Below, one piece after another: positions 1-28,293 of a stretch of DNA of 32,000 bases. Where the stretch lies: NCBI GenBank assembly GCA_963692945.1, contig OY843585.1:1170001-1202000 (forward strand). The letters are read 5' to 3'. How positions within the stretch are numbered: position 1 is the stretch's first letter; every line of letters starts with the position of its first letter. Under the pieces are notes generated by a model, which did no database searches, was not told the origin of the DNA, and saw nothing but the letters and a program-made list of their open reading frames with translations. Source of the DNA: Bdellovibrionales bacterium (GTDB taxonomy: Bacteria; Bdellovibrionota; Bdellovibrionia; Bdellovibrionales; UBA1609). The position numbers and the translations under genes are program-made.

Positions 1-1113
1 GAGAATTCAAGTCAAAAAATAGAAATTAAAGAAACAAAAGATGAAATTACAGAAATTAATAATTTTATTGAAAAAATTAATCAAGATATCGCAATATATA
101 ATGAAAAATTAAAAAATAAAGATCAAACCCAAAAAAAAATAAAAAATCAATTTTGGCAAATTATGCGTTGGAATTATGACAATGCACTAATTCAGCATGA
201 AAAAAATAAAGATAAAACTGAGAAAAAAATAGAAGAAATAAACAATGAGATAACAGGTATTAACAAAAAAATATCTCTTCAAAAAGAAAATATAAAACAA
301 CAACAAGAAAATATGATCAATATTGAAGGGGCAATAAATAATATCAATAATGGATTGAGAGAATTAGGAATTGAAGGATTCAATATAATAAAATTTCAGG
401 AAAATTCATATAAAATTGTGAGAGAGGGTCAGGAAGAAGGACAGTTTCAAACTCTCAGTGAAGGTGAAAAGATGATTATAAGTTTTCTCTATTTTATGGA
501 ATTATGCAAAGGAAAAGAAAGTAAGGAAGAAGTAGTAAAAAATAAAATTGTGGTGATTGATGATCCAATATCAAGCTTATCACATACTTATATTTTTAAT
601 CTCAGTATTTGGATAAAAAACCATTTTTTTAAATCAGAAAATTATAAACAGATTTTGGTATTAACTCACAGCTTGTATTTTTTTCACGAACTCATAAGAT
701 ACGATAAAAATAGAAAACTTTTTCGTTTTCTAAAACTATCAACAAATAAAATTCAAATTGAAAAAATGGAAGAAAATGAAATAAAAAATGAATACGAATC
801 ATACTGGCAAGTTATTAAAGACCATGAAAATGGCAAAGCATCAAATGGATTGCTTGCAAATAGCATGAGGAACATACTTGAACATTTCTTTGGTTTTATA
901 TATAAAGAAGGACTAGAAAAAAAATTAGAGTCCTTAGGTAAGGATAATAAATTCGAATCTTTTCTAAGGTATATGAATAGGGAATCTCATTCAGATGCTA
1001 TAAATATCACTGATGACAAAGAAATAGATTCAAAACTTTTTAAAGATGCTTTTAAAGAAGTATTTACTAAGTCTGGCTATGAAGAACACTATAAAAATAT
1101 GATGAAAACTTAA
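1..1113 (+). CDS. AAA_13-type (PrrC/RloC-like) ABC-fold ATPase, C-terminal ~370 aa; 5' end lies upstream of the window
   Basis: Frame 1 is open from nt 1 (ENSSQKIEIKETKDEITEINNF...), so the 316-aa track ORF starts at an internal Met. A Lys/Glu/Asn coiled-coil insert is followed by the ABC-signature-like LSEGEKMIISFLYF, Walker B IVVIDDPISSL and LTHS. This layout is typical of AAA_13 ATPases. The Walker A motif is not in the window. Confidence 0.6.
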   Translation, partial: ENSSQKIEIKETKDEITEINNFIEKINQDIAIYNEKLKNKDQTQKKIKNQFWQIMRWNYDNALIQHEKNKDKTEKKIEEINNEITGINKKISLQKENIKQQQENMINIEGAINNINNGLRELGIEGFNIIKFQENSYKIVREGQEEGQFQTLSEGEKMIISFLYFMELCKGKESKEEVVKNKIVVIDDPISSLSHTYIFNLSIWIKNHFFKSENYKQILVLTHSLYFFHELIRYDKNRKLFRFLKLSTNKIQIEKMEENEIKNEYESYWQVIKDHENGKASNGLLANSMRNILEHFFGFIYKEGLEKKLESLGKDNKFESFLRYMNRESHSDAINITDDKEIDSKLFKDAFKEVFTKSGYEEHYKNMMKT

Positions 1114-1215
1114 AAGTGTTTCATTTTGAGAATTTCTTTTTAAAAGAGCTTAAGCTTTGAACGATAGAATAATAACTGTTTAAAAACACTGGCTTTTTTT
1201 AAACAATTAAATCAC

Positions 1216-1327
1216 TATCCTAAGACCTTAAACTATCCTTTTTTTAAAACAAAATCTTACTTATTTATTTTTCTTAACTAAGGATATGTCAATATGATGT
1301 ATAATAGCATATGTCTAGTTAAGGATA
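1216..1327 (+). promoter_or_regulatory. Putative promoter/operator for the 1363-2301 gene pair
   Basis: TAAGGATA at 1279-1286 and 1320-1327 (direct, 41 bp apart) bracket a TATAAT at 1300-1305. The reverse-complement half-site TATCCT occurs at 1216-1221 and 1234-1239. An AGGAG Shine-Dalgarno at 1351-1355 lies 7 nt before ATG 1363. Confidence 0.3.
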
Positions 1328-1362
1328 ACTAGTTTTTTAACAAATAACATAGGAGTAAAATT

Positions 1363-1644
1363 ATGGAATCATATTTAGATATAAGTCGTTTTGAACCAGC
1401 TAGAATTGAATTTATAAATCAAGAAATCTCTCTAGAAAGAATTTTGGGAATCTATGACGAGCATAAAGATACTTTATTAGATCATTTAAAAAAAGATAAA
1501 GAAGAATTAGAAAATAGCTTAAAAATACCTGTAGATATAGGTGAAGAAATTCAAAAAGTACAACTTGAAGAAATTGAAAAAACAAAACAAGCTATTAAGA
1601 AAGTAGAAAATTACAAAAATACAAACTCTTACAATCTAAGGTAA
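1363..1644 (+). CDS. Hypothetical small acidic/coiled protein (93 aa)
   Basis: ORF with a good SD (AGGAG, 7-nt spacing). It ends 12 nt before the next co-oriented ORF. I recognise no motif. Confidence 0.45.
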   Translation: MESYLDISRFEPARIEFINQEISLERILGIYDEHKDTLLDHLKKDKEELENSLKIPVDIGEEIQKVQLEEIEKTKQAIKKVENYKNTNSYNLR

Positions 1645-1656
1645 TAGTACTTCATT

Positions 1657-2301
1657 ATGGCTTTAATTAAGAATAGTAAAGGTAAGGAAAATAGCGGATA
1701 TGTCCATATATTTGGCAATGAAAAACTAGGAAGGCTTATTAGTCGTGTTCATAGTGTTTCTAATAAAAATGGGCAAGAACTTAAAAACCTTATAAAAAAA
1801 TATTCAAAACAAATTCTTATAGATAAAAAAAAAGATATAGATAAACAAATAAAAGAATTTTTAAATAGTAGACAATCAGGAATATACCTTCTAAGTGTAG
1901 GAGATATAAAGCATAGAAAAAAACTAAAAGGAATGCAACCAGACTTCATTATTTTTAATAAGATAAATAATAAAAACCTAAAATGTTATTTATTGAAAGT
2001 TACAGACTCTTATAGGATAAGCAAACCTTATACAACAACCATAATAGATTCGATGGAAAAATTTAAATTTAAACATATAAATTTTCATTATAAATATTAT
2101 TGTTGTTTCAATGAAAGCACTAAAAACCAAGTTAGAAAAGGATTTGGAAATAAAATTAGAGAAAATCAATGTTTAACTGGAAAGGATTTATGTAAGCTAT
2201 TGAAAATTAATTATCAAGAAATAAAAAAAATAAGACAAAAAGACCAAAAAGATAATTTAAATTATTTTGTTCAAGAATTGAAAAGTATTTTTAAACTTTG
2301 A
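1657..2301 (+). CDS. Hypothetical basic protein (214 aa), function unknown
   Basis: ORF tightly coupled to the 93-aa ORF. It is Lys-rich and has a QPDFIIF...CYLLKV segment only loosely reminiscent of PD-(D/E)XK. No secure family assignment. Confidence 0.45.
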   Translation: MALIKNSKGKENSGYVHIFGNEKLGRLISRVHSVSNKNGQELKNLIKKYSKQILIDKKKDIDKQIKEFLNSRQSGIYLLSVGDIKHRKKLKGMQPDFIIFNKINNKNLKCYLLKVTDSYRISKPYTTTIIDSMEKFKFKHINFHYKYYCCFNESTKNQVRKGFGNKIRENQCLTGKDLCKLLKINYQEIKKIRQKDQKDNLNYFVQELKSIFKL

Positions 2302-2450
2302 AAAACACAATACAAGATGAAGAAGTAGATATTTTTAATAATCACTATATTTAAAATTTTTAGGATTAAAAAAACTTCTATTTAAAAATTGACAGAATAA
2401 AACAATATATATGTTTTTAAAAAATCATTTTAAAAACAATTAAGATTTTT

Positions 2451-4037
2451 TCATTCTGCAATTTCATCTATACATTTAATAATAAAATCTTCTAGAGTTT
2501 TAAAATCTTTATTCAATTGCTTTGCATCTTCTAATTCGTAAAACGAGTCATGTTTGCTTATATTTCCTCTAGAAGCAATTTCATTAATAACATTTTTAAA
2601 TCCATTTCTCTTATTTTTATTATACCAGTCATTTATTTTACTATCATAAAAACTCTTAAAAGAAGTACTTCTGGGCTTACCCATATAACAAGATAAACAA
2701 TCTAGAAAAGCCCAACCACCTATATAAGCTAAATAAGGATGTTCTACCAGAGATATTTTACAAAGCGAATTATATAAATAATATAATTTTTTATGGGTTA
2801 AATTTTCTAACTTGTCGCTAATATTATTTACAAGCAAGATTTTTGTACTACTTAAGGAGGTCGCTTTTTTCCTTTCCTCTTGTCCTTTTTCCGATCTTAC
2901 TATAATATTTTTATTAGAGATTACTGACATTACACTAGGAGTATCTTTATTTGATTTTTTGTCTTGTTTAGAGCGATAGTTATTAACTTGATCAATAAAT
3001 TTATCTTTTTGCAGTTCTTTTTTTAAAATAATGTACAAATCATGAATATCAGTAAATTTTGTTTTCATAAAATCAATTTCAAAATCATCTAAATGAAGTT
3101 CTCCATATATCCTTTCACTTGCATATTTATTTTTAGTTCCTGATAAGATTTTTGGACGATTAGGAGTTATAAGAGTTCCTTCAATTACTCTATTATTTCT
3201 GAAAAGCCGTATACCAGGTTGTTCGTAACCACCTTTTTTCATAATTACACAAAATCCTTTTACTTTACTTCCTTTATAATCTAATTCAATTTTCTTTTTC
3301 CATAATCTTGTTTTAGATATACTTTCCATCTTATTATTTACTAAAGGATAATTTAATGTTTCTGAAGGTTCAAAATAAGCTTTCGTCTTTTTTTTCCATT
3401 TTTTTGGTAAAATTTCATTATCATATTCAACATCTATTGATAAAAAATTTTTAAATTTTATAAATGTTTCTGCTAAATGAGGGATAACCATATCTTGATA
3501 ATATTCTTTTGACTCTATTCTTTTAGAATTTTTTATAATAATTTTTGTGTAATGATTCTTTTGCTTTTCAATTTTACTAGAAACAGAAACTGCTGTTTTA
3601 TTTTGTTCTAACAATTCATCAAGATTAAATTGAAATATCAATTTTTCTTTAGAATTTAAAGATGAGGTTTCAATTTCCCAATTACTACTGAACCATACAG
3701 CAGATGTTTTCATTCCTATACCGAATTTTGAAAGACTTGATTTTTTATGATTAACACTTACTCCCATTTTAATAGCTTTTTGAAAGTTTTTTCTATTTAT
3801 TCCACTAGCATTATCTAAAATAATTATTTCTTTCTTTTTACTATCTATAGAAATTTTTATCTTTAATTTTATATTCTTCTTTTCAATAACTTGAATAGAC
3901 TTTCTATTATCTATATAAGATTGAACAGAATTATCCACAAATTCTGAAAGAGCAGAATGAACAGAATAAGGTTGATTTTGTAACCATTTATACATAGTCA
4001 TTTCTGGAGAGACATCAACTTTAAAAGAATTAGACAT
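2451..4037 (-). CDS. GHKL (HATPase_c_3) MORC/paraMORC-like ATPase with an unknown ~130-aa C-terminal domain
   Basis: Bergerat-fold motifs are present: EFVDNSVQS (N box), ILDNASGI (G1), KFGIGMKTSAVW (G2), HYTKIIIKN. These are followed by GIRLFRNNRVIEG and IYGELHLDDFEIDFMKTKF segments, as in prokaryotic MORC-like proteins. The gene is co-oriented with the upstream C5 methyltransferase and starts 151 nt downstream of it. Confidence 0.7.
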   Translation of the reverse strand: MSNSFKVDVSPEMTMYKWLQNQPYSVHSALSEFVDNSVQSYIDNRKSIQVIEKKNIKLKIKISIDSKKKEIIILDNASGINRKNFQKAIKMGVSVNHKKSSLSKFGIGMKTSAVWFSSNWEIETSSLNSKEKLIFQFNLDELLEQNKTAVSVSSKIEKQKNHYTKIIIKNSKRIESKEYYQDMVIPHLAETFIKFKNFLSIDVEYDNEILPKKWKKKTKAYFEPSETLNYPLVNNKMESISKTRLWKKKIELDYKGSKVKGFCVIMKKGGYEQPGIRLFRNNRVIEGTLITPNRPKILSGTKNKYASERIYGELHLDDFEIDFMKTKFTDIHDLYIILKKELQKDKFIDQVNNYRSKQDKKSNKDTPSVMSVISNKNIIVRSEKGQEERKKATSLSSTKILLVNNISDKLENLTHKKLYYLYNSLCKISLVEHPYLAYIGGWAFLDCLSCYMGKPRSTSFKSFYDSKINDWYNKNKRNGFKNVINEIASRGNISKHDSFYELEDAKQLNKDFKTLEDFIIKCIDEIAE

Positions 4038-4054
4038 TTAAAACCTCTTTAGCA

Positions 4055-4140
4055 AACCAACTTTATTTGCTGGGCTAATTATTTAACAATCCTTGCATCT
4101 ACAATATCTTTAAAAGATTTGAAAGATAAAAATTCACTTT
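4055..4140 (-). pseudogene. Decayed remnant of a C5-methyltransferase 3' end (motif X region)
   Basis: 86 nt at 4055-4140 align without gaps, at roughly 80% identity by eye, to 4195-4280, the last ~28 codons of the intact methyltransferase. The offset is exactly 140 nt. The remnant frame contains a stop, and the GNAV motif has degenerated (KDIV). Confidence 0.55.
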
Positions 4141-4188
4141 TACACACTGGGTTAGTAACTTAATTTTATTTGTTTATCTAAAAAATTT

Positions 4189-5445
4189 TTATAAAACCAG
4201 ATTTATTTGTTGAGCTAATAATTCAACAATCTTAGCATTTACAGCATTTCCAAAAGATTTGAAAGCTAAAGATTCACTATCTGGTATAAAGGATAGAGAA
4301 TGTAAATTTTGTAACTTTGCAGCTTCAAGTTTAGATATATATCTCATTTCAAACCCAATAATAGGTCTTTGTGTGGAAGTCATAGCAACAAGTGAAGGTA
4401 TTTTATGAGGCTTCAATACACGAATACCAGAAGCTCTAAATTGCAAAATATGTTCCGATAATACATAATTATCTTTAGATCCTCTCCATTCTAGTATTTG
4501 CCAACTATTATAATTTTTATTCAATTCTTTTTTCCAACTATTTAAAAACCTTTTATTTTTCTTATATAAATTTCTAGTATAAACCACAGAGTTTTTTAAC
4601 CAATCAGGTACTTTATTTGCTTTTCTTACATAGGAAGGTAGTCGAGAAAGCAAATCATTTCTGGAAGTGCAGTTATTTAATTTTTCTCCATAAGATCCCT
4701 TATATTTATACATATCTTTTAAACTTATTTTTTTAAAATTTAAAGGATAAGTGGCTCCTATTTCTGAAGCCACAATAGATACAGATGAAAGAGTATTAAT
4801 CTTACAGTTATCTAATAATTTTTGCCATTGCTGAATTTGAAGTTTTTTTTCTGATTCTATTTTTTTATGACTATCAGAAGAAATGAGTATATCTTTTAAT
4901 TGTTTCATGGATTGTTTTTTATTTGGCCATTGAAACTTTTTTAAATGTTTATTACTTTTAAATCCTAAAATAAAAATACGTTTTCTATTTTGAGGAATAC
5001 CAATGTCTAGCGGAGAAATGACTTTATAAATAACTTCATAACCTAATTTATTAAATGAATTTTTAATAAATTTCCAAAATTTTCCACCTTCAATATTTAA
5101 TATATTAGGTACATTTTCTAAAATTAAAAAATCTGGAGAGTGATATTTTGTAATTCTCAAGATATCCTTAATTAATTTTCCTGAATTTGGACATTTATAT
5201 CCATCTTTTTTCCCTGCTAATGAAAAAGACTGACAAGGAAATCCTGCACATAAAATATCATGCTCTGGAATATCTGTCTCACAAATTTCTCTTATGTCCC
5301 CTTTAGGTTTAATACCAAAGTTTTTATAGTAAAGTTTTTGTAACTGAGTATTGATTTCAGATGCAAATACACATTCAAAATTTCCTGCATTGAGTAACCC
5401 TTTATGAAATCCACCAATACCAGAAAAAAGATCAATAAATTTCAT
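4189..5445 (-). CDS. DNA (cytosine-5)-methyltransferase
   Basis: The canonical C5-MTase motifs are all present: I FSGIGGF, IV GFPCQSFSLAGK, VI ENVPNIL, VIII QNRKRIFILGF, X GNAV. A long variable (TRD) region lies between VIII and X. Confidence 0.93.
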   Translation of the reverse strand: MKFIDLFSGIGGFHKGLLNAGNFECVFASEINTQLQKLYYKNFGIKPKGDIREICETDIPEHDILCAGFPCQSFSLAGKKDGYKCPNSGKLIKDILRITKYHSPDFLILENVPNILNIEGGKFWKFIKNSFNKLGYEVIYKVISPLDIGIPQNRKRIFILGFKSNKHLKKFQWPNKKQSMKQLKDILISSDSHKKIESEKKLQIQQWQKLLDNCKINTLSSVSIVASEIGATYPLNFKKISLKDMYKYKGSYGEKLNNCTSRNDLLSRLPSYVRKANKVPDWLKNSVVYTRNLYKKNKRFLNSWKKELNKNYNSWQILEWRGSKDNYVLSEHILQFRASGIRVLKPHKIPSLVAMTSTQRPIIGFEMRYISKLEAAKLQNLHSLSFIPDSESLAFKSFGNAVNAKIVELLAQQINLVL

Positions 5446-5671
5446 AGCAAAAGATATATCGGTTTTTTATCTTTAGTTACTTAGTTAATAATTTGGTAAG
5501 AAACAGACTAAAGTCATAAAGTTTAAAAGTTTATTCTGACAGGAATTGTCAATTAAAATCGCTGTGGCTTTTTACTCTATCAGTTATTTAATGAACACTT
5601 TTTCTCATTGCATTATACCCCTACTGCCTATATATTCCTGAGTTCAGTAATTTTCTCTTAGAGGGAGTAGA

Positions 5672-6649
5672 ATGAATTTAAAATCTAGTTATACTAACAA
5701 AAAAGGATTTTTTTTGGGTGAAAAAAATTTAGAACAACTAAATGACTTAGGTCTTATCACGGAAAATATCATTTCTCCAAGTAAAGAGATGCTTGCCTAT
5801 GAAACCTTGTGGGCTATCCATGATATTAAAGAGAAAATGTTAAGAGAACTTTTTAGCAATCACATTCCATCTAAAGCTTTACTGGAAGTATCGTCAGCAC
5901 AAGCTGATTTTTTTGAACCAGAAAAATCTTTAAATGAAACTGAAAATAAAGTTAGTGTATTTTTAGAAGAGCAATCACTGGATCAAAATCATTTTTCATT
6001 TATTGTAAATAAAAACTTTCAATGTCCTGAAGTTTTAATGAAAGAATATCCTGTCGGATTATTTTACTACAAAGGAGATTTAAGTTTTCTAGAAACAAGA
6101 CTGATTTCCATAGTGGGTTCTAGAAAGCCATCTAAAGAAGGAATAACAAGAGCTCAAAACTTAGCTAAAGGATTGGTTGAAGAAAATTTTACTATTGTAT
6201 CTGGCTTAGCAGAAGGGATAGATGCATCGGCTCACAAATCAGCTATTGAAAATAATGGCAGAACCATTGGAATTATAGGAACACCAATCAATGAATATTA
6301 CCCTAAAAGTAATAAAAAATTACAAGAAGAGATTGAAAAAAATCATCTTCTTATAAGTCAGGTTCCGTTTTATAGATATGCTAATGAACCTTTTTCCAGT
6401 CGTAAATTTCATTTTCCAAGAAGAAATAAATTAATGGCTTCCATATCAGAAGCTACTATTGTTGTGGAAGCTTCGGACACAAGTGGTTCTCACTCTCAAG
6501 CTAGAGAATGTCTTAAACAAAAGAAAAAATTATTTATACTAGATTCTTGTTTTAATAATGAAAAAATTAAATGGCCTAAGAAATACTTAGAAAAAGGAGC
6601 TATTAGAGTTAAAGAACTTTCAGATATCTTAGAAAACATCAATGAGTGA
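5672..6649 (+). CDS. dprA: DprA/Smf-family (SLOG Rossmann) protein, lacking a long C-terminal winged-helix extension
   Basis: EYPVGLFYYKGDLSFL...ISIVGSRKPSKEG...IVSGLAEGIDASAHKSAI...GIIGTPINEYYP...RRNKLMASISEATIVVEASDTSGSHSQARE matches the DprA core. SD GAGGGAG lies upstream of the ATG. The gene is divergent from the methyltransferase. Confidence 0.8.
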   Translation: MNLKSSYTNKKGFFLGEKNLEQLNDLGLITENIISPSKEMLAYETLWAIHDIKEKMLRELFSNHIPSKALLEVSSAQADFFEPEKSLNETENKVSVFLEEQSLDQNHFSFIVNKNFQCPEVLMKEYPVGLFYYKGDLSFLETRLISIVGSRKPSKEGITRAQNLAKGLVEENFTIVSGLAEGIDASAHKSAIENNGRTIGIIGTPINEYYPKSNKKLQEEIEKNHLLISQVPFYRYANEPFSSRKFHFPRRNKLMASISEATIVVEASDTSGSHSQARECLKQKKKLFILDSCFNNEKIKWPKKYLEKGAIRVKELSDILENINE

Positions 6650-6695
6650 AGGTAAATGGCGTAAGATTGAAGTAGAAAACTTTTAGTTATATATA

Positions 6696-8612
6696 TCAAT
6701 CTTGATTCTCAAAATATTTTAAAATACCTTGTAATAATTTATTGTATTCATCTTCAATATTTTCATATTTTAAATTTTCAAAAATTAGATTCTTAGTTTG
6801 TTTAATTATGTCATCAATTTCTTTATCTAAATCAATCTGTTTTTTTTGCTTTAACCAATTTTTGATATTTTTAATATTGTTTCTTTCCTTTAAAATATTT
6901 TTATCAAATTTTAAATCTCTTATATCTTTATCATTTAAAACCTTGTTTACCTGCTCTACAATAAAATTATTTTTTATAAAATCTTCACCTGTTACTGCTT
7001 TAATTTTTGAATCAATATCCTGATAATTTTTCCAACTCCCAAATATTTTCTGCTTTTTATGTTGTTTCTTGTACTGTTTAGCCGTCTCGTCACTATCACT
7101 GATAATTAAGCATTTTCTTTTTGCCAGCTCAATTAATGGAGTAATTGTTTTTATATTTTTTACACCTTTAACATGACAAAACCCTATTTCTTTAAATTTT
7201 TCTTTTATTTCTTCAGTCTGTTGTTCTAAATATTTTTGAAATAAAAATTTATCTCTCCATCCTTCAAAAATAATATTTTTTTCTTTTAAAAAATCAAAAG
7301 TGGAAAATCCAAGAGCATTATATAGCAACTCTTCCTCTGTTATATTTGATTCTTCCGCTTGACTGATATTAGTAATTTCATTTTCCTTTTTAACTATATA
7401 ATGTCGATCAATATCACTAGAATCAATCATAAAGATAGAATGTGTGCTATAAAGAACATAATTCTTATTTGCAATTTTAATCAACTCATCTCGTAAATAA
7501 CGAGCTCCGCTTGGGTGTAAGTTTATTTCAGCCTCATCTACTAAAATCAATGTATTTTCTAATAAATTAGTTCTTACACGTGTTGAAATCATTAACAAAA
7601 AAGTAATAAATCTTTTAAAACCATCACTTCGTTTATCAAAATCATAAATATTTCGTTCTTTTATTCCAGGTATAATAAGATCACTATCTTTTTTAAGAGA
7701 AAATTCTATATTTTTATATTCTTTCCATACTTCTCTGAAATGACTTGTAGTTTTTCTTGCAATACCATCAAGATAATTTTGAAACTGATTTGAACTATAT
7801 CCTTTTTTACTCATAATATCTTCTGAGATATTTCTAATACCTGAAAGAGTAAACATATTTTTTAAAGGTATACAAGAATCTGGATTATTTGCAAATCCAT
7901 CAATATCTACAGATCTAGGTAACAAATTTTCTTCTTTATACTCCCAAAATATAATTTTTGGTAAATTTCTTTTTGTGATATCTGAAATAATACCTCCAAC
8001 TAATTTCTCTAAGTCTTGAAGCGTAGCATCTTCTAAATAATCTTCTGGAAGATCGGACCAATCTTTGAGTTTAATTAATGGCCATTTTGAAAGAAGATAT
8101 GCTTTATCTTTTAATTTTAACTGATAATCAGCAGGACAATTCTTACTTGGCTTCATCCATCCATTCAATAAATTAAATCCATCTTCTAATTTATAGTAGT
8201 TACAATTTTTATTTTCATTTAAAATATCAACCTGATATAATCCTTTATTTTGAGTATTACAAAAACCCTTTACAGATTGATTTTGACCATTCAAAGATAC
8301 AATTTCTGGATTCTCTTCATCTGAAATAATGTATGATGATAAAATTGTAAATATTTCATCTAACTCTTTTTTTTCAAATTCAAAGATGAATTTCACAAAT
8401 GACTTTTCAACTATATCTTCATCAGGTAATGCTTCTCTTTGATCTCTCAGTTTTTCTGGTTTATAACTATCCCCCAATAAAGACAATGCTTTTAAAATAT
8501 TGGATTTACCAGATTCATTTATACCTACAAGCACACGACAAGTAGGATTAAATTTAAATGTAATTTCTTCGATAGAACGAAAATTTTTTATATTCACTTG
8601 TTCAATTTTCAT
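6696..8612 (-). CDS. OLD-family nuclease (N-terminal ABC-type ATPase + C-terminal Toprim)
   Basis: N-terminus MKIEQVNIKNFRSI...GINESGKSN (Walker A); LILVDEAEINLHP (Walker B); STHS. C-terminus IIFEGWRDK (Toprim Glu) and LIISDSDETAK (DxD). Confidence 0.8.
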   Translation of the reverse strand: MKIEQVNIKNFRSIEEITFKFNPTCRVLVGINESGKSNILKALSLLGDSYKPEKLRDQREALPDEDIVEKSFVKFIFEFEKKELDEIFTILSSYIISDEENPEIVSLNGQNQSVKGFCNTQNKGLYQVDILNENKNCNYYKLEDGFNLLNGWMKPSKNCPADYQLKLKDKAYLLSKWPLIKLKDWSDLPEDYLEDATLQDLEKLVGGIISDITKRNLPKIIFWEYKEENLLPRSVDIDGFANNPDSCIPLKNMFTLSGIRNISEDIMSKKGYSSNQFQNYLDGIARKTTSHFREVWKEYKNIEFSLKKDSDLIIPGIKERNIYDFDKRSDGFKRFITFLLMISTRVRTNLLENTLILVDEAEINLHPSGARYLRDELIKIANKNYVLYSTHSIFMIDSSDIDRHYIVKKENEITNISQAEESNITEEELLYNALGFSTFDFLKEKNIIFEGWRDKFLFQKYLEQQTEEIKEKFKEIGFCHVKGVKNIKTITPLIELAKRKCLIISDSDETAKQYKKQHKKQKIFGSWKNYQDIDSKIKAVTGEDFIKNNFIVEQVNKVLNDKDIRDLKFDKNILKERNNIKNIKNWLKQKKQIDLDKEIDDIIKQTKNLIFENLKYENIEDEYNKLLQGILKYFENQD

Positions 8613-8746
8613 AAAAGATACTCTTTCGTTTTTGGATAAATTCTTTTTAAATCATTAATACAGAGAAGAAGTCAATGTTTTTTAAGATAAATCTTTCTAT
8701 AATTTGACAATCTACATTAGAAGTGTCCTAGTAGATTTATAATCTT

Positions 8747-8775
8747 AAAAAACGAAAGCGAGTTATAAAACTCGC
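8747..8775 (-). terminator. Rho-independent terminator after the DUF5131 gene
   Basis: On the minus strand, GCGAGTT-TTAT-AACTCGC (7-bp stem, 8758-8775) is followed by TTTCGTTTTTT. A second imperfect hairpin (CCTTAATAGT/ACTACTAAGG) lies at 8781-8804. Confidence 0.55.
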
Positions 8776-8892
8776 CTCGTGCCTTAATAGTCGCAACTAC
8801 TAAGGGATGTTGATAGCAATGTTAGTTTATTTCCTAAGAAAATCAAGTTTAAAATTTAAAGACATGCTTTACAGCTGAAATTCTTGGTTAAT

Positions 8893-9612
8893 TTACAGAA
8901 AATAACGAGGCATTTGATCCCAAGTGCGTCCTTCTAAAATACGACCTGTCTTATGCTTTCTAACTCCACCCCATTGTTTAAAAAAGAAAGGAACATTCTT
9001 TGCTACACATTGATCTCTGATTTCAGTCACCCATTCTGGTTTCATAGGACGAGCCTTTGGGCCTGATTCCCCACCAACAATAACCCAATCAATTCCCTTT
9101 AATTTTAATCTCTTTGGAAGATGCCCTAAAAGAGGTTCTATAGACAAAAACTTTACCTTTGCCTGTGTCTTTAAGAGATGGTCAATTCTGCTTAAATAGT
9201 TCTTATTTTCTATACTGACACCCATCCAAATATTTTTTGTCCAATTCAACTTTGAAGATAATTTTTCCAACCTATCTGCTCTTTTTGTTAAGACTTGGAA
9301 TTGATGTTGAGGGCAGTTGTTCATCACATCAAAAACTTTTTTAATAAAATCCAAAGGACTATCTTTATGAAAAAGATCACTCATAGAATTTACAAAAATT
9401 ACTTTTGGCTTTTTCCATTGCATAGGAATATTTAAAGCCTGTTTATGAAAAGTCAGTTTAAATCCATTTCTATAATTATATTGTTTCATATTTTGCAGTC
9501 TGTAGGACATCCTCTCTGCATAACAATTTTTACATCCAGGACTGATCTTATTACAACCAGTCAAAGGATTCCAAGTTGCCTCTGTCCATTCAATACTTGA
9601 TAGTGTCGCCAT
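8893..9612 (-). CDS. Phage Gp37/Gp68-family protein (DUF5131, three-Cys motif)
   Basis: The N-terminus [30 protein letters not shown] is the hallmark of this family (Cx6CxxC). It lies 13 nt downstream of the TcmP-like gene. Confidence 0.8.
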
Positions 9613-9625
9613 CTCTAACCTGTTT

Positions 9626-10525
9626 TTAAAATTTCTTTAAAATATCCTTAGCAATTTTAACTCCTACTCTATTTTCAGCAGCAAAACAAAATAAAAACAA
9701 AGGATTGTTTTTTGAATTATATAATTTTGCAGGGTTAGTTGCTACTTCTTTAAATACAGTTTTAAGTCTTTTTATAAAAAACCGACCTATTTCATCCAGA
9801 TTTACTTTTTTTATTAGGTTATTCCCTTCATTTTCAAAAAATGCTGTTTGAGAATCTGTCTTGTAAAACCTAGATTCCCAATCTGTTGTACCAAACAAAT
9901 TATTTAATATATCCCTATGTTGCTCATTTATTTGCCCATCTTTTCTCAAAAGTCTATTCACACCTACTCCCAAAGGAAATAAAACCCATAAATCTATAGC
10001 CTTTGTCTGTGCAATAGATTTAATAGTTTCCCATTGAATTTCCATACCAAAAGGATCAAGGAACATAACAGCACGATGACTTTTCCAATTCCTTTTACAT
10101 AATTCTTGAATATATTTATTTGCATCTCTATTTATCATTTTTATTTTATCTTTTAATATTGGATATTTATCTTTTAGTTTTGACAATTCTTTAAAATTTT
10201 TTTCATTTTTTTCAATAAAGATATATTCTTGAAATAATGGTTGAACTTCCAGTGCTTTTACTGCTGAACCTTTTATAAAATTTAACTCCTCTGTATCTTC
10301 TTCTAAAAGAGGATAAGTATCTGATTTTTTTCTCCGAGATACTCTATATCCAGTTCCAGCAAAGGCATCAATATAAGCAAAATTAAAACTTTGTCTATTC
10401 ATTATTTTAGAATAAGCAGATAAATATTTATAAAGTATCTCAAGTTTTTGATTTGTCCAATCACCACCAAATTTTTGATTTGTTATTTGTTTATACATTT
10501 TATTTTTTTCTTTGCTTTGGTCCAA
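9626..10525 (-). CDS. Three-Cys-motif partner protein TcmP-like (methyltransferase-like fold suspected)
   Basis: [23 protein letters not shown]...[12 protein letters not shown] resembles the TcmP N-terminus and a DxFAGxG SAM-motif-I-like element. It shows the canonical pairing with a Gp37/Gp68 gene. Confidence 0.6.
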
Positions 10526-10765
10526 ACTTACCCCGTTCAGCTACTGGCAATCATATCAATAATTAATTTTTTATCTATTGAAAAAAATATTTTTTGCTTA
10601 GCACAAACTTATTTTAAATAAAATTGCAATCACTAAAAAGAAAAATCTAAGTGGCATGTTTTTTGCATATCTACTACCTCAACATATCTAAATAACTCTT
10701 ATTATTTCCTATCACTATAGAAAAGACTAGATTTTGTAGTCCCATTTATGGTATTATCATAAAAA

Positions 10766-10915
10766 ATGATGCATGCATCTTTGGAGTTTCAAGAGTGGTT
10801 AGAAGAACTTCCTTTGAGAACTCAATATGGAGGAGGTAAAAATGGCCAAAAAAAAGACATCAAAAAAGCAAAAATTCTTGCTCAAAGATATGCCAAAAAT
10901 GAATCTAAAGAGTAA
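10766..10915 (+). pseudogene. Collapsed RelE/HigB-like 'addiction module killer' remnant (49 codons)
   Basis: The small ORF MMHASLEFQEWLEELPLRTQYGGGKNGQKKDIKKAKILAQRYAKNESKE joins a killer-family N-terminus (F.EWL..L) directly to the family C-terminus (GG.K..Q.KDI..AK). The ~50-residue core in between is missing. It overlaps the antidote start. Confidence 0.5.
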
Positions 10916-11168
10916 AAAAGGAATTAAACCTTTTACAGCTTCTAAGAATTTAAAAAATAAAAATTATGTAAAAAAAGTTCTTTTTGGCTGCTTTGTTCAT
11001 AATGACATGGAAGGCTTTAAAGAAGTGTTGCGAACTCACTTTGATCTTGTCAATAAAGATGAAGTTATTAAAAAAGTTAATATTTCTAAAACCACTTTTT
11101 ACCGAACTTTATCAAAAAAGAGCAACCCTACTCTTAGGAATATATCAAAACTTCTTAAAGCGATTTAG
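10842..11168 (+). CDS. HTH 'addiction module antidote' (HigA-like) protein
   Basis: The C-terminal HTH reads VNISKTTFYRTLSKKSNPTLRNISKLLKAI. The track ORF starts at 10827, but GGAGGAGG at 10829-10836 is a strong SD for the ATG at 10842. Confidence 0.65.
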   Translation: MAKKKTSKKQKFLLKDMPKMNLKSKKGIKPFTASKNLKNKNYVKKVLFGCFVHNDMEGFKEVLRTHFDLVNKDEVIKKVNISKTTFYRTLSKKSNPTLRNISKLLKAI

Positions 11169-11277
11169 TGACAAGCCGTTAGTCGTAAGTTATTCACTTT
11201 ACAGTAAGGCACTCACTTTATAACAAAGCGTCTCAAAACAGAGAAATGTATTCTATTTTACAAAGAAAGATATTAAG
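11067..11277 (+). repeat. Direct repeat copy 1 (3' end of antidote gene + ~110 nt downstream)
   Basis: 11067-11209 equals 13357-13499 with only 2 mismatches in 143 nt. Similarity then continues with two indels (about 20 nt and 8 nt) to ~11277/13540. Confidence 0.9.
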
Positions 11278-11634
11278 TAATGATCTTACTCATACCAACC
11301 AGATATCATTAAATAACATCTAGTTTTTAGTTTTATTAAAACATTCAAGCCATAACCTCCATGCAATTTCTTGACCACTCTGCCATACTGAAATTACTAA
11401 ATACCAATGCAATGCCTCATACCAACAATTATTAACAACTCAACCAGTACAACCAATAAATCAAACTTACAACATTCAAATATTTTAACGTTATTATTTA
11501 CTAAAGCAACACAGACAAAAGAATTGACTCTCTTTTTTAAAATGGTTTAATTGTAGCAACACAGACGCTACTTTGAGTATAATCAAGTCAACGATGTTTT
11601 TTTTAATTGATTAGTATTAACTAGGGCAATAAAA

Positions 11635-12864
11635 ATGGCTTCATCTTCTAAATTACCTGTAAATATTGAAACTCTAAAGTGGGCTAGAGAGAATGCTGGT
11701 TTTACTCAAAATGATGTTCCAGATTTTGATTCCAATGATATTAAAAAAATAGAAAAAGGTAAAAAAAATATCACTCTAAAAGAAGCTAACACCTTAGCAA
11801 ATAATTATGGAGTATCTATACACATATTTTCACTTCCTCCTAAAGTAAGTTTAGACAGTAGCATTAAAGATTTTAGGAAACTTCCAGATTCTAAAAAACA
11901 TGTTTACAGTAAAGAGTTAAGACTCTTCATAAACAAGATGAAATATAGACAAGAATGGATGAGAGACTACTTAAAAGAAGAAAACGTTAGCCCTCTTAGT
12001 TTTATAGGTTCAGTGAATGTTAAAAACACTAATCTACAATCTGTAGCAGAAGAAATTGTAAAAACATTTTTTCAATCCAGACAAAAATATTTCAATTTTT
12101 TTAGAACGAAAAAGAAAATAAAAGAAACGCTCAAAGATAGAAAAAAAACTAAAGAACAGTTTCTTAATGATTTGATAAAAAGATTAGCAGATTATGGAAT
12201 TATTACTTTAAAATGTAAGGGGTTTGATAACAATAATAAAATAGATCTTGAAGATGCTAGAGGGTTTGTTTTAATAGACAAATATGTTCCATTTATTTTT
12301 ATCAATTCTTCAGATCACATAACAGCACAAATTTTCACTCTCATGCATGAGATAGTTCATATATTTATAGGTGAAGAAGGAGTTTCAGGCAATTTAGTAA
12401 AAAATAACAGTAACCAGATAGAGTTATTTTGCAATCAAGTTGCATCAAGAATACTGTTGCCAGAAAAAGATTTAAACATCACTTCTATTGATAAACACTT
12501 TTTTGAAAATAAAATCAGAAAAATATCAACTTCTTTCTTTATAAGCAAACTATCTGTTTTATTAAGGTTAAAAGAAATCTCTTTAATAACATCTAAGAAT
12601 TTTGATAAAAAATGGAATGAATATCAAAAAGATATGAAAGAATGGATAAAAACTCAAGAAGAAAACAAGGAAAAAAACAAAGAAAGAAATACTAACAGTG
12701 GTAATTATTACAATACAGCAATTAGCAGAAGAAATAGACAGTTTATCAAATCAGTCTATGGAGCTTATCAACATAAATCTATTACAGCCTCACAAGCATT
12801 GTCTCTCTTAGATGTAAACATGAAAACATTAAAAAAACTATATCAAAAAGCTATCAAGAAGTAA
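11635..12864 (+). CDS. XRE-type HTH fused to ImmA/IrrE (DUF955, COG2856) zinc metallopeptidase
   Basis: N-terminal HTH (LKWARENAGFTQNDV...ITLKEANTLANNYGVS). The HExxH motif lies in FTLMHEIVHIFIGEE. The gene ends 8 nt upstream of the PIN-like gene. Confidence 0.8.
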   Translation: MASSSKLPVNIETLKWARENAGFTQNDVPDFDSNDIKKIEKGKKNITLKEANTLANNYGVSIHIFSLPPKVSLDSSIKDFRKLPDSKKHVYSKELRLFINKMKYRQEWMRDYLKEENVSPLSFIGSVNVKNTNLQSVAEEIVKTFFQSRQKYFNFFRTKKKIKETLKDRKKTKEQFLNDLIKRLADYGIITLKCKGFDNNNKIDLEDARGFVLIDKYVPFIFINSSDHITAQIFTLMHEIVHIFIGEEGVSGNLVKNNSNQIELFCNQVASRILLPEKDLNITSIDKHFFENKIRKISTSFFISKLSVLLRLKEISLITSKNFDKKWNEYQKDMKEWIKTQEENKEKNKERNTNSGNYYNTAISRRNRQFIKSVYGAYQHKSITASQALSLLDVNMKTLKKLYQKAIKK

Positions 12865-12872
12865 GAAATAAA

Positions 12873-13361
12873 ATGATTTATTGTTTAGATACAAATTTAT
12901 TTATTGAATGTTGGAATAATTATTATAGAAATACATTTTTTAATCAGAAAAATTTTTTTGATTTATTAAAAGAAAAATCTTCTTTTTGTGATTTATATAT
13001 TCATGAACAAGTTAAGATTGAGCTTCAAAAAAAAGACGATGAACTCCTAAATTGGTTTAATGAAAATATAGATATTTTTAAATCATTTGATAATAAAAAT
13101 AACGAAATTATGGATACATATATTAAAATTAACAAAAAATATCCAGGGTTAAAAAAGAATAGTCCAGATTCAGCAGACCCTTTCATTATAGCATCTGCTA
13201 TAGTTTTAAAAGGTAAAATTGTTTCTGATGAAAGAGGAGGAGGTCAACTACCTCAAGAAAGAAGTAAATATAAAAGCATACCACAAGTATGTGTTGCAGA
13301 AAAGATAGATCATTTAAGTATTTTTGACTTTATCGAAGAAGTTAAAATTAAATTTAATTAA
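12873..13361 (+). CDS. DUF4411 PIN-like nuclease-fold protein
   Basis: The N-terminus MIYCLDTNLFIE has a PIN-type acidic residue, with later acidic positions (SADPFIIASA, VSDE). It shows the canonical pairing with an ImmA/IrrE gene. The stop codon falls in the first bases of repeat copy 2. Confidence 0.6.
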   Translation: MIYCLDTNLFIECWNNYYRNTFFNQKNFFDLLKEKSSFCDLYIHEQVKIELQKKDDELLNWFNENIDIFKSFDNKNNEIMDTYIKINKKYPGLKKNSPDSADPFIIASAIVLKGKIVSDERGGGQLPQERSKYKSIPQVCVAEKIDHLSIFDFIEEVKIKFN

Positions 13362-13540
13362 AAAAGTTAATATTTCTAAAACCACTTTTTACCGAACTTT
13401 ATCAAAAAAGAGCAACCCTACTCTTAAGAATATATCAAAACTTCTTAAAGCGATTTAGTGACAAGCCGTTAGTCGTAAGTTATTCGCTTTACAGTAAGGT
13501 GTCTCAAAATGTATTCTATTTTGTAAGGAAAGGCATTAAA
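13357..13540 (+). repeat. Direct repeat copy 2 (start-less fragment of the antidote gene 3' end + downstream sequence)
   Basis: See copy 1. It encodes KKVNISKTTFYRTLSKKSNPTLKNISKLLKAI* with no start codon. Confidence 0.9.
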
Positions 13541-13577: not shown

Positions 13578-13605
13578 TTGACATCTATTGAATTTTTACT
13601 AAAAT
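13578..13605 (+). promoter_or_regulatory. Sigma-70-like promoter of the Panacea-domain gene
   Basis: TTGACA (13578-13583), a 16-nt spacer, then TAAAAT (13600-13605). GGAGGAG SD at 13613-13619. Confidence 0.45.
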
Positions 13606-13621
13606 CCAACCTGGAGGAGTT

Positions 13622-14104
13622 ATAAATACAAATTCTATAACAGAAAAAATTTCAAAAGATAGACCTTATCTTTCTGCTGATGATTTATCTCAATACATTG
13701 TAAAGTGGTGTAAAGAAAATGACGAAAAATTAACGGCTATGAAGCTTCAAAAACTCCTTTATTACTGTCAAGCGTGGTCTATTGTGAAAAACAAAAAACG
13801 AATGTTTGACGAAAAAATAGAAGCTTGGCAATATGGAACTGTTATCCCTGAAATCTACCAAAAACATAAAGGTAAAAAAGAAATTACTTGTTGGAATCAT
13901 GGAAGTTTAGAGAAAATAGAATCCGATTCAACCCTTAAAGAATTTATAGATTCTATCCTTCAAAATTATGGAACAAAAAGTGGGAGTTTTTTAAGTCACC
14001 TAACACACTCAGAAGATCCCTGGCTTCAAGCTAAAGATAGAGCTGATAAAGAAATCACAGTGGAAGATATTTACAATTATTATAATCCAGAAGACTCTAA
14101 TTAA
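13622..14104 (+). CDS. Panacea (DUF4065, SocA/GepA-like) antitoxin-domain protein; start codon uncertain (non-ATG)
   Basis: KLQKLLYYCQAWSIV...EAWQYGTVIPEIYQ is the Panacea core. The frame is open back to 13592 and encodes domain-like residues (SADDLSQYIVKWCKENDEKLTA) upstream of the first ATG (13739). Between the SD and 13739 there are only ATA/ATT codons. Confidence 0.65.
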   Translation: MNTNSITEKISKDRPYLSADDLSQYIVKWCKENDEKLTAMKLQKLLYYCQAWSIVKNKKRMFDEKIEAWQYGTVIPEIYQKHKGKKEITCWNHGSLEKIESDSTLKEFIDSILQNYGTKSGSFLSHLTHSEDPWLQAKDRADKEITVEDIYNYYNPEDSN

Positions 14105-14173: not shown

Positions 14174-14545
14174 TTATTTATTAGATTCATTTTCATTTTG
14201 TAACCACACCTCTAACTCCTTAAAGATGCTTTTTATCATTTCAAAAACTGTATGCAATTCATTAATATTTTCTACACAATATTTAGCAGTATTTTCAAAG
14301 CGTTTTTGTAGACCCCATAAATAAAAACCAAGCAACACAGCAACAGCAGGTAAGATACCTGCACCCATAGCGTTCCATAACGAGTGATTTATAATAAAAA
14401 ATTCTTTATCTAGTAAATATCGCCAATCTACCAAAACACAAAAGATTACAACAAGAAATAGACTGAGAATAAAAACTTTTTTATTAAAAAAATTCATGTT
14501 AAAATATTTTCTGAGAATAAAAACTTTTTTATTAAAAAAATTCAT
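14174..14545 (-). CDS. Small 2-TM membrane protein (107-123 aa depending on start)
   Basis: Two hydrophobic helices (VFILSLFLVVIFCVLV, GAGILPAVAVLLGFYLWGL). The N-terminus is duplicated in frame by a 48-bp tandem repeat, giving candidate starts at 14497, 14545 and 14563. It is co-oriented with and downstream of the ParA-like gene. Confidence 0.5.
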   Translation of the reverse strand: MNFFNKKVFILRKYFNMNFFNKKVFILSLFLVVIFCVLVDWRYLLDKEFFIINHSLWNAMGAGILPAVAVLLGFYLWGLQKRFENTAKYCVENINELHTVFEMIKSIFKELEVWLQNENESNK

Positions 14546-14558
14546 ATTACAACATTTT
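14463..14558. repeat. 48-bp tandem duplication (2 copies, 45/48 identical) covering a start codon
   Basis: 14463-14510 versus 14511-14558. It duplicates MNFFNKKVFIL plus upstream sequence, in frame (16 codons). Confidence 0.9.
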
Positions 14559-15979: not shown

Positions 15980-16921
15980 TCACTTCTTAGAGCGTTTGTC
16001 CTTGTAACAACTTTCATCGGCACGCTCATATATGTTTTCCCATTTTTTATCTGTTTCTTTTCTAGTTGCTACACCTATGGATATAGAAACCTCAATCTCT
16101 TGATCTTCAAACACAAACGGATGTTTCTCAATATTTTTTATAATTCTTTTACTAACGTTTTTTCCAATCTCAATAGAGTTTGGTGTAAAAATACAAAACT
16201 CATCTCCTCCATAACGAAACACAACATCCTCACCTCTACTGGCCTCCTTCACCAAAGAAATAATAGTTTTTAAAATATAATCTCCAGCTAAATGCCCATA
16301 GTTATCATTGATGGATTTAAAATTATCAACATCAAAAACAATAAGACTTAATTCCTCAGAATTGCTAAACAACTCTCTACCTTTAACCGTTAAATATTGG
16401 CGACTACCAATCCCCGTTAGAGAATCAGTGTAAGCCTTATCCAATAAAGATTTAGAAGAAAGAAGCTCTACACTTCCTTTTTTTAAAAATTTAAAAATAA
16501 GATCACTAGCCCTTATAAGATCATTATTCAAAACTTCATACTCTTTACGAGGCTCTAACATCTGATCATTCTTATAAGTTTTATTTGTGGAATCTAAATC
16601 TATAATATAAAAAACACCTTCCCTATGTATAATTTGAAAATGAGATTTGCTCAAATTTTCATGATTGACAAAAACATCTGATAACCGTTGAGACCTCCCC
16701 ACAGTTACAATGGGCTCAGTTAAAGGCCATGAAAAACCAACCAAATCTTTAGGTCCAATTAAAAGAACAAGAGAGGCTGGAGTGAATCGAGCAGAAGATA
16801 TTTTTATCTTCAAAGTGTTTTCATCTATAGCAACACGAGTGGCTTCACCAACTGTTTCTTCAGGACGCTCGTCTTTTTTTAGCTCATTTTCTTTTTTTAA
16901 ATCTTTATCGTCTTTCATCAT
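15980..16921 (-). CDS. FHA-domain diguanylate cyclase (GGDEF)
   Basis: FHA: VTVGRSQRLSDVFV...LSKSHFQI...YIIDLDSTNKTYKN. GGDEF: DNFKSINDNYGHLAGD...FRYGGDEFCIF. Confidence 0.9.
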   Translation of the reverse strand: MMKDDKDLKKENELKKDERPEETVGEATRVAIDENTLKIKISSARFTPASLVLLIGPKDLVGFSWPLTEPIVTVGRSQRLSDVFVNHENLSKSHFQIIHREGVFYIIDLDSTNKTYKNDQMLEPRKEYEVLNNDLIRASDLIFKFLKKGSVELLSSKSLLDKAYTDSLTGIGSRQYLTVKGRELFSNSEELSLIVFDVDNFKSINDNYGHLAGDYILKTIISLVKEASRGEDVVFRYGGDEFCIFTPNSIEIGKNVSKRIIKNIEKHPFVFEDQEIEVSISIGVATRKETDKKWENIYERADESCYKDKRSKK

Positions 16922-16978
16922 TTCCTCTACATCCTTTTTTTAAATCTTTATCGTCTTTCATCATTTCCTCTACATCCT
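16891..16978. repeat. Perfect 43-bp tandem duplication spanning the stop of the PGI-like gene and the SD/start of the GGDEF gene
   Basis: 16892-16934 is identical to 16935-16977. It duplicates GAGGAAATGATGAAAGACGATAAAGATTTAAAAAAA on the minus strand. Confidence 0.95.
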
Positions 16979-23123: not shown

Positions 23124-23336
23124 TGCAAAAAACAGTAGGTTTTTTCTATGCAAAAACCAGAGTTGCGAAAAACCGTAGTTTTCCTATATCAAAAAACAAT
23201 AGGTTTTTTCTAATTCACCTATGCGAAAACCAGTAGGTTTTCTCTATGAATATCCCTCCTTGTTTTCTGAACTTGAAGAGTGTCCCTCTTACGATGAAAG
23301 GTCAGAAAACAAGGAGGGATAACACTAGAGTTTTGG
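23124..23336. repeat. Mosaic intergenic repeat: array of ~25-nt palindromic motifs + 19-bp-stem hairpin + terminal repeat
   Basis: The motif TGCRAAAACCAGTAGGTTTTYTCTATG occurs at 23124-23150, 23164-23188, 23189-23214 and 23221-23248. A hairpin runs ATCCCTCCTTGTTTTCTGA (23252-23270) / TCAGAAAACAAGGAGGGAT (23302-23320). ACTAGAGTTTTG lies at 23324-23335. Confidence 0.85.
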
Positions 23337-27161: not shown

Positions 27162-27317
27162 ACTTACTTTTCGGCAAAAAAGATTGAAAAACTTACACTT
27201 TTTTACCTTAAAAGCTCTTATTTCTCATCTTTTCTTGAAACTGCAAGAAAAAATATTGAAATTTTTCTAAAAAACTTGTACATATTCATTCAATTATTCA
27301 ATTAAAGAGGTGTTCTT

Positions 27318-28262: not shown

Positions 28263-28293
28263 AAAACTCTAGTTCATTCCCATGGGTGTTCTT

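Follow-up and report, generated by a model that had tools for sequence, protein, structure and literature searches.

How does a toxin-antitoxin (TA) cassette come to stand between two almost identical copies of the end of a neighbouring gene? The question is raised by a stretch of 32,000 nucleotides (nt) from a Bdellovibrionales bacterium (GTDB lineage UBA1609; assembly GCA_963692945.1, contig OY843585.1, positions 1,170,001 to 1,202,000, forward strand), which is referred to here as the window and from whose first letter all positions are counted. In it, a two-gene cassette coding for an ImmA/IrrE-type metallopeptidase and a DUF4411 PIN-like nuclease lies between two copies of the 3' end of a HigA-like antidote gene. 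A preliminary description of the locus attributed this arrangement either to the single-crossover (Campbell-type) integration of a circular molecule or to a recent cassette insertion with a long target duplication. We tentatively put forward a different answer, which we regard as possible rather than probable: the repeat may be a partial gene duplication made by general recombination in a decaying TA and defence island, in which a second Gp49-antidote module was truncated, and not the footprint of a self-mobilising cassette.

The repeat and its junctions

A repeat search, a pairwise alignment and a script agreed on a direct repeat of 143 nt, hereafter X, whose copies at 11067-11209 and 13357-13499 are identical at 141/143 positions and lie 2290 nt apart. 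The near-perfect repeat of the preliminary description was thereby recovered at the same coordinates and with its two mismatches (copy A/copy B: G/A at 11137 and A/G at 11196). The single two-gene module said to lie between the copies is also there, comprising 2147 nt with an HTH-M78 gene and a DUF4411 PIN gene after a 358-nt non-coding region, and the gene identities given for it were upheld. The parts of the locus are as follows.

10899..11168, + strand: HigA-like "addiction module antidote" gene, intact, 89 aa; the mechanical open reading frame (ORF) extends to 10827
11067..11209: repeat copy A (X_A), the antidote gene 3' end plus 41 nt downstream, with ATTAA at its start
11210..11276: tail A, a diverged continuation of the repeat with 20-nt and 7-nt insertions relative to tail B and with ATTAA at its end
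11635..12864, + strand: HTH (Xre-type)-M78 ImmA/IrrE metallopeptidase gene, 409 aa, with an HEIVH motif in the translation
12873..13361, + strand: DUF4411 PIN-like nuclease gene, 162 aa, full length, with the native C-terminus ...KFN*
13357..13499: repeat copy B (X_B), an antidote gene 3' fragment without start codon, which overlaps the end of the PIN gene by its first 5 nt (ATTAA)
13500..13539: tail B, a diverged continuation of the repeat with ATTAA at its end

Chance is excluded as the origin of the repeat, because a 22-mer derived from X occurs exactly twice in the window and in none of 100 shuffles (GTGACAAGCCGTTAGTCGTAAG is an example stretch of X). The longest uninterrupted blocks of identity within X measure 70 and 58 nt. 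Neither a third copy of X nor any other intergenic repeat common within the island was found in the 32-kb window, and a 22-mer from the non-coding part of X had 0 matches in the genome, metagenome and viral contig collections. Coding sequence of one particular gene makes up 70% of X: copy A holds the final 33 codons and the stop codon (11166-11168) of the antidote ORF (10827-11168) together with the 41 nt that follow, in keeping with the gene 3' end of the preliminary description. Copy B is out of frame with the PIN gene and has no start codon; it is a dead antidote pseudogene fragment, which would have no function beyond that of a recombination substrate.

Past the 143 nt, the weaker and indel-bearing similarity that had been described is real and ends at 11276/13539. 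The tails have in common the block GTCTCA and an exact 16-nt block (AAATGTATTCTATTTT) and then differ by five transitions in 17 nt; copy A holds two insertions, of ~20 and 7-8 nt, and the last bases common to both are ATTAA (11272-11276 and 13535-13539).

Three homologs of the PIN protein end in ...(K/I)FN followed by the stop codon, and their genes end in AATTAA or AATTAG; from these matching ends it follows that the PIN gene of the window is complete and that its stop codon is the exact starting point of the antidote fragment. The five nucleotides ATTAA, whose frequency on this strand is 0.003 per nt, are common to the native end of the PIN gene and to the antidote sequence at 11067. This overlap suggests joining at a microhomology, as an observation made post hoc in AT-rich DNA.

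Divergence along the repeat

The near-identity of the copies had been taken as the mark of a single recent event, which is too simple a view, since one event would give uniform identity. There are 2 differences in the 143 nt of X, as compared with 5 substitutions in 40 aligned nt plus two indels in the tail (99% vs ~85% identity; Fisher's test, p = 0.006 for substitutions and 0.0005 counting indels). The extra 20-nt unit in tail A is a copy of the unit preceding it, with ~30% divergence, and because this unit is itself diverged it must be older than the near-identity of X. The abrupt drop of identity at 11209/13499 therefore points to two layers of history and not to one simple recent duplication. 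The repeat pair looks like a mosaic, in which an older duplication was overlaid by a recent homogenising exchange ending near 11209/13499. A comparable patchwork is seen in two tandem paralogous genes elsewhere in the window (27318-28262 and 28282-29181, within 27309-29181; neither has a Pfam match), which are 99% identical over the first 83 nt and 81-93% identical elsewhere, so that conversion-like exchange between neighbouring repeats seems to occur in this genome.

A possible truncated second module

The modules on both sides of the cassette are decaying by deletion, as is seen from the loss of 156 bp in a Gp49 toxin gene on the left and from the lack of a canonical start codon in the Panacea-domain gene on the right. 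Their features are listed here.

10766..10915, + strand: Gp49/HigB-like toxin gene remnant with an in-frame internal loss of ~52 codons, leaving a 48-49-aa stub
13578..13605, + strand: sigma-70-like promoter, the best match in the region (TTGACA-16-TAAAAT, 11/12), just upstream of the Panacea ORF
13619..14104, + strand: SocA/Panacea-domain antitoxin gene (PF13274, 66.4 bits against a cut-off of 25.7)

The antidote protein scores 27.7 bits against TIGR02684 (cut-off 53.7) and 17.7 bits against PF21716 (cut-off 27), both below the cut-off; because the match spans the whole profile and its homolog P0003 carries PF21716, we read the protein as a divergent member of the family. Only two relatives were detectable in 5.8 billion clustered proteins, P0002 (75% identical) and P0003 (67% identical). 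The homologs in two related loci, L001 (where the protein is P0002) and L003, stand directly after, and overlap, a Gp49/HigB-type toxin gene, whereas in the window the intact toxin gene upstream of and overlapping the antidote start is absent. Positions 10721-10819 of the window align to 383-485 of L001 and positions 10829-11167 to 642-980, by which the 156 bp missing from the toxin gene were identified. The translation of the stub (48 aa in frame, 10769-10915) joins the N-terminal 17 aa to the C-terminal 29 aa, and the L001 counterpart of the toxin is 78% identical. Because of the comparison with L001, the native start of the antidote gene was placed at 10899, and the listed 113-aa ORF is probably in reality this 89-aa gene with a 5' extension that overlaps the remnant of the deleted toxin. 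By what is known of the family, the antidote gene would now be an orphan antitoxin or a regulator.

On the other side, the alignment of the Panacea protein with its homologs extends 39-40 codons upstream of the first ATG (13739), into a stretch (13601-13738 examined) that holds no ATG, GTG or TTG, and the start codon of P0125, which is 61% identical, aligns with a GTT at 13619. Either the start codon has been lost, which would make the gene a pseudogene, or translation begins at a non-canonical codon (ATA at 13622), or the sequence contains an error. In the window, no toxin gene in the same direction was identified as a partner of the Panacea gene.

The relative L003 (ENA ERZ25068449 contig_1, a 1.63-Mb contig) has two ImmA-DUF4411 cassettes in one island, and duplicated island segments or cassettes with 92% identity. 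The first of its cassettes is followed, 130 nt on, by a Gp49 toxin gene and then by a homolog of the antidote gene (49% protein identity to that of the window). This order, PIN, then Gp49, then antidote, is the order proposed for the precursor of our locus and supports a truncated second module, because with such an ancestral order downstream of the PIN gene a single deletion, from the PIN stop codon to the ATTAA of the second antidote gene, would yield the present structure.

The ancestor would then have been arranged as [Gp49-antidote]-[ImmA-PIN]-[Gp49-antidote]-Panacea, with the modules in direct orientation, and the downstream tails of the two Gp49-antidote modules would have been old enough to differ by ~15% plus indels. 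A recent gene conversion or homologous exchange may have homogenised at least the last 143 nt, and a deletion at the ATTAA microhomology may have taken out the second toxin together with two-thirds of the second antidote gene from its 5' side, fusing the remaining fragment to the PIN stop codon. With the first antidote copy still in place, the second module could have been lost without harm. At present the repeats would be passive: recombination of the RecA type would delete 2290 bp and leave the intact antidote gene, tail B and the Panacea gene. The preliminary description had stated that the cassette can be lost in this way, which the identity blocks of 70 and 58 nt make possible in principle, and the presumed addictive nature of the cassette may counter-select such deletants.

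Several points weigh against this proposal. It needs three events (duplication, conversion and deletion), and that the deletion should end precisely at the stop codon of the PIN gene is a coincidence, except if there was selection for an intact PIN gene. Insertion or templated copying would account equally well for the ATTAA at the two ends of the homology. When the comparison with the tail is confined to the 41 non-coding nt of X (1 mismatch), the difference is not significant (p = 0.06-0.11). The precedent in L003 involves a distant paralog of the ImmA-PIN cassette (~30% aa identity) and not an orthologous cassette. A genome with an intact second module was not found in the collections, where no close relative is present either, and the 90% cluster of the antidote protein contains this genome alone.

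Alternative origins of the repeat

Insertion by homologous recombination comes next, and we consider it rather unlikely. DNA carrying the antidote 3' end and the ImmA-PIN pair would have recombined within X at the antidote-Panacea locus, either as a circle, by Campbell-type single crossover, or as linear DNA, by homology-facilitated illegitimate recombination anchored in X and joined illegitimately at ATTAA; the donor would then have supplied tail A and the recipient tail B. The X-cassette-X anatomy, with the intact gene on the left and the fragment on the right, is the footprint expected of such an event, the differing tails fit two parental molecules, and the PIN/X junction offers the ATTAA microhomology. 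The cassette is found as a self-contained pair in unrelated places of its relatives (45-52% protein identity), between housekeeping genes or in defence islands, so that it does move, and a DprA gene, which is associated with the uptake of transforming DNA, lies 5 kb away. However, the donor must already have held the junction between the PIN gene and the antidote fragment, with X 99% but the tail ~85% identical, and about three events are needed, as many as for the deletion route. No recombinase was found in the scanned ORFs of the window, and no other copy, donor allele, empty site or circular junction in the collections. Six homologous cassettes of relatives were compared: flanking repeats are absent from five, and the remaining one stands between copies of the array repeat that is proper to L003.

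Two suggestions of the preliminary description are affected by these results. The layout that it read as Campbell-type, a repeat with a gene 3' end on both sides of a cassette, stands, but no recombinase, structured fold, empty site or circle accompanies it; nor did the collections, which contain no close relative, bring to light an antidote gene followed directly by the Panacea gene. DNA homology to the cassettes of relatives is limited to the two genes (11630-13362), the downstream tail is not conserved in L001, L002 or L003, and searches of plasmid and phage DNA returned a sole match, of 94 nt, to a Leptospira DUF4411/XRE pair. The X bracket is thus peculiar to this locus, and the cassette is mobile in the loose sense in which all TA pairs are.

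The other suggestion, an insertion with a long target duplication, finds little support, as no transposase was found in the scanned ORFs and none is known to leave a target duplication of 184-211 nt. The locus does not match a transposon or insertion sequence, for lack of a transposase and of terminal inverted repeats (none was found at 11277/13356) and for the length of the duplication, 143-211 nt as against the usual short ones (2-15 bp).

A local templated duplication seems to us quite improbable. A template switch at ATTAA, after the PIN stop codon, would have copied ~180-210 nt from 2.29 kb upstream, and a switch back would have left this copy as a short dispersed duplication ahead of the Panacea promoter. 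ATTAA, a rare pentamer with which the PIN gene natively ends, is found at both ends of the duplicated segment, and the window holds other fresh small duplications, namely tandems of 43 and 48 nt. Uniform identity would be expected of such a copy, yet 5 substitutions and 2 indels fall in the final 40 nt, as opposed to 2 substitutions in the 143 nt before them, the extra unit of tail A is ~30% diverged from its neighbour and hence old, and the ATTAA observation has the post hoc character already mentioned.

The first of these tandems is a perfect 43-nt duplication (16891-16976), which spans the ribosome-binding site and first 10 codons of an FHA-GGDEF gene on the minus strand as well as the stop codon of the upstream gene; the proximal copy alone is in frame, and the event looks very recent. 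The 48-nt tandem (94% identity, 14463-14558) lies inside the 5' end of a 129-aa membrane-protein ORF on the minus strand, whose true start is probably downstream of it.

A dedicated cassette-shuffling system, integron-like or of the Xer/dif-module type, with X as the recombination site and the recombinase elsewhere in the genome, is largely refuted for the window, and we give it very little credence. Chromosomal integrons and pdif modules often carry TA cassettes, and in L003 TA and defence cassettes do lie between five elements of ~130 nt with long-range pairing potential. The element of L003 is absent from the window by nhmmer, however, and neither X nor X together with its tail folded better as DNA than shuffled controls on either strand (z from -0.6 to +1.0). 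Inspection of the sequence by eye showed no attC boxes (RYYYAAC/GTTRRRY) and no dif-like 11-6-11 site, X occurs in only two copies in 32 kb, and 70% of it is coding. A Pfam scan of nearly all listed ORFs of at least 90 aa in the 32-kb window revealed no recombinase, transposase or tyrosine recombinase domain. An attC-like or otherwise structured att site was accordingly rejected, as X folds no better than shuffled sequence and the boxes are absent, and so was an integron cassette array, given the two copies in 32 kb and the lack of IntI or another tyrosine recombinase in the scanned ORFs. By these scans of the window, no mobility machinery or structured site accompanies the cassette.

The array of L003 is of interest in its own right. 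Its ~130-nt element occurs in five same-strand copies (641-786, 1402-1547, 4576-4721, 7404-7544 and 10227-10372), which separate a BrnTA module, an ImmA-DUF4411-Gp49-antidote group, a two-gene unit, an ImmA-DUF4411 cassette and AbiE. The element has the potential for long-range pairing (AGTGACCA..AGGA with TCCT..TGGTAACT), including two compensatory changes, and the layout is integron-like, yet without GTTRRRY boxes or an Rfam family. Scanning metagenomes and viral contigs with a pattern of the element returned no match.

It is also conceivable, if very far-fetched at present, that TA cassettes are shuffled in a manner specific to this lineage, small modules circularising at short, AT-rich microhomologies of the ATTAA type and re-entering islands through recombination with the conserved 3' ends of antitoxin genes already present there. 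Such shuffling might be a recombinase-independent or trans-acting counterpart of integron and pdif exchange, and might be related to the L003 array. Further X-bracketed cassettes or empty sites, if they exist, would indicate a recurrent mechanism, and the finding would then matter more.

A falsely duplicated segment in the assembly is the least credible explanation of all, for although the source contig (1.56 Mb) probably derives from a metagenome, the copies differ at 2 positions and their tails by indels, both copies have unique sequence to their left and right, copy B adjoins on its left the native and intact end of a gene, and a repeat of 143 nt is short in relation to long reads.

The cassette and its upstream region

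The HTH-M78 protein matches PF06114 (E = 1e-10, 42 bits against a cut-off of 22) and, below the cut-off, HTH_19 (E = 3.5e-5, 24 bits, residues 12-61); its homologs (n = 9) are 45-52% identical. The PIN gene follows 8 nt downstream on the same strand, and its product covers the profile PF14367 from end to end (positions 1-159/159, E = 1.2e-25, 90.7 bits), with the acidic residues D6, E50, D56, D102 and E120 invariant in an alignment with three homologs. The two proteins match two chains of one PDB entry, 9vzy, the HTH-M78 protein chain A (E = 3.5e-17) and the PIN protein chain D (E = 5e-7), for which a literature search found no relevant paper. In this entry a module of this type has been solved as a complex, which is indirect evidence that the two products may form one as well; in it, a toxic PIN nuclease would be neutralised. 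Judging from related proteins, the HTH-M78 protein probably represses its own promoter and probably sequesters the PIN nuclease, and a trigger that works by way of the peptidase domain would then release it.

Upstream of the two genes is the following region.

11277..11634, + strand: non-coding region upstream of the cassette, 358 nt, G-poor, with a CA-rich stretch

Between 11300 and 11500 this region has only 4-8% G. It holds CTCATACCAAC twice (11289 and 11416) and AGCAACACAGAC twice (11505 and 11555), the latter as exact copies 50 nt apart around promoter-like hexamers; the AGCAACACAGAC pair may be, and probably is, the promoter/operator of the cassette. The region shows no conservation in the relatives.

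Island context and relatives

Positions 1-15.8 kb of the window form a defence and TA island of low GC content. Besides the modules described above, the island contains an AAA_13 ATPase fragment, a PD-Lambda-5_A-like HATPase adjoining a C5 DNA methylase, dprA, a ParA-like ATPase, an OLD-family ATPase-TOPRIM nuclease and a TcmP/DUF5131 pair that matches the PADLOC candidate system PDC-M41; the AAA_13, HATPase-methylase, OLD-family and TcmP/DUF5131 genes lie within 1-10525. Housekeeping genes follow past the island (including glutamate dehydrogenase, dihydroorotate dehydrogenase, HU, a class II aminoacyl-tRNA synthetase and CTP synthase). No tRNA gene and no Rfam family was found in the window.

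Exact-protein look-ups of the antidote and PIN proteins returned no record, and thus no strain-level relatives. The nearest genome in the species-level collection, located by way of DprA, is a metagenome-assembled genome of a Bdellovibrionales bacterium whose DprA is 61% identical and which shows no synteny beyond dprA. In a further relative (L004:8001-12051), an ImmA-DUF4411 cassette with a decayed PIN gene lies <2 kb from dprA and in the opposite orientation, the dprA area of the window being 5672-6649; in this lineage, modules of this kind may repeatedly have landed in the vicinity of dprA.

Beyond the island, an intergenic repeat of 104 nt with 97% identity occurs at 23214-23317 and 30228-30331, with a partial inverted copy near 29270. 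Within it are a perfect inverted repeat of 17 bp (CCCTCCTTGTTTTCTGA...TCAGAAAACAAGGAGGG) and a small AAAACC/GGTTTT hairpin, and it has no Rfam match at the gathering threshold; it may be an element similar to repetitive extragenic palindromes or to miniature inverted-repeat transposable elements, or a small RNA.

The finding by itself matters little, and the five-copy array of L003 is the more intriguing lead. The locus is nevertheless a clean and datable case of rearrangement and decay in a TA island, with an antitoxin duplicated in part, a toxin gutted by deletion and an antitoxin that lacks a start all within 3.4 kb, and a natural substrate for measuring the repeat-mediated loss of an addictive cassette.

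Comparison with known systems

The association of a DUF4411.1 PIN protein with a fused HTH-COG2856/DUF955 protein (ImmA/IrrE, M78) has been predicted to constitute a three-component TA-like system (Makarova et al. 2009, PMC2701414), and a later study gives the same prediction for this pairing (Matelska et al. 2017, PMC5499597). The cassette in the window agrees with these modules in its N-terminal HTH, its M78 domain with HExxH, the DUF4411 gene directly downstream on the same strand, and its occurrence as a stand-alone pair in varied contexts. In itself it is no different from them, and only its flanks, with the duplicated end of a neighbouring antitoxin gene, are unusual. With ~50% identity to its closest database relatives, it is an ordinary member of a known predicted family, its function being a prediction likewise.

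The flanks invite comparison with other systems. Integrative elements that insert in the 3' ends of genes, whether tRNA or protein-coding, carry a replacement 3' end and are bounded by direct repeats, attL and attR. In the window, too, the cassette has at both ends direct repeats that take in the 3' end of the target gene; one side has the gene intact, the opposite side a duplicate of its 3' part, and foreign genes lie in the middle. In contrast to such elements, the insert is a mere 2.1 kb with two genes, no integrase was found in or near it, X has no recognisable core or arm structure, and neither an excised form nor an empty site was found in the collections, which contain no close relative.

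Homology-facilitated illegitimate recombination in naturally transformable bacteria was reportedly described by de Vries and Wackernagel in 2002. Its likeness to our locus lies in one long homologous anchor, X, and one junction at a microhomology, ATTAA, but the classical cases replace or delete recipient DNA and do not duplicate the anchor directly. With regard to competence, dprA was the only gene noticed in the window.

Gene cassettes of integrons carry attC sites, and pdif modules likewise have their sites. A small, promoter-bearing TA cassette flanked by repeated DNA resembles both, and the relative L003 has a true multi-copy repeat between its cassettes. X differs from the sites of these systems in having no hairpin, no conserved boxes and no multiplicity, and no recombinase was found in the scanned ORFs.

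The closest fit is with the decayed TA modules and gene-conversion mosaics generally known from such islands, to which we assign the locus and from which no difference was identified: the toxin is internally deleted, the antitoxin is an orphan, an antitoxin fragment lacks a start, the neighbouring antitoxin has no start codon, and the identity of the repeat is patchy. The ingredients, a known type of cassette, a partial gene duplication, TA decay and gene-conversion mosaicism, are all familiar, and the locus is a new instance of them.

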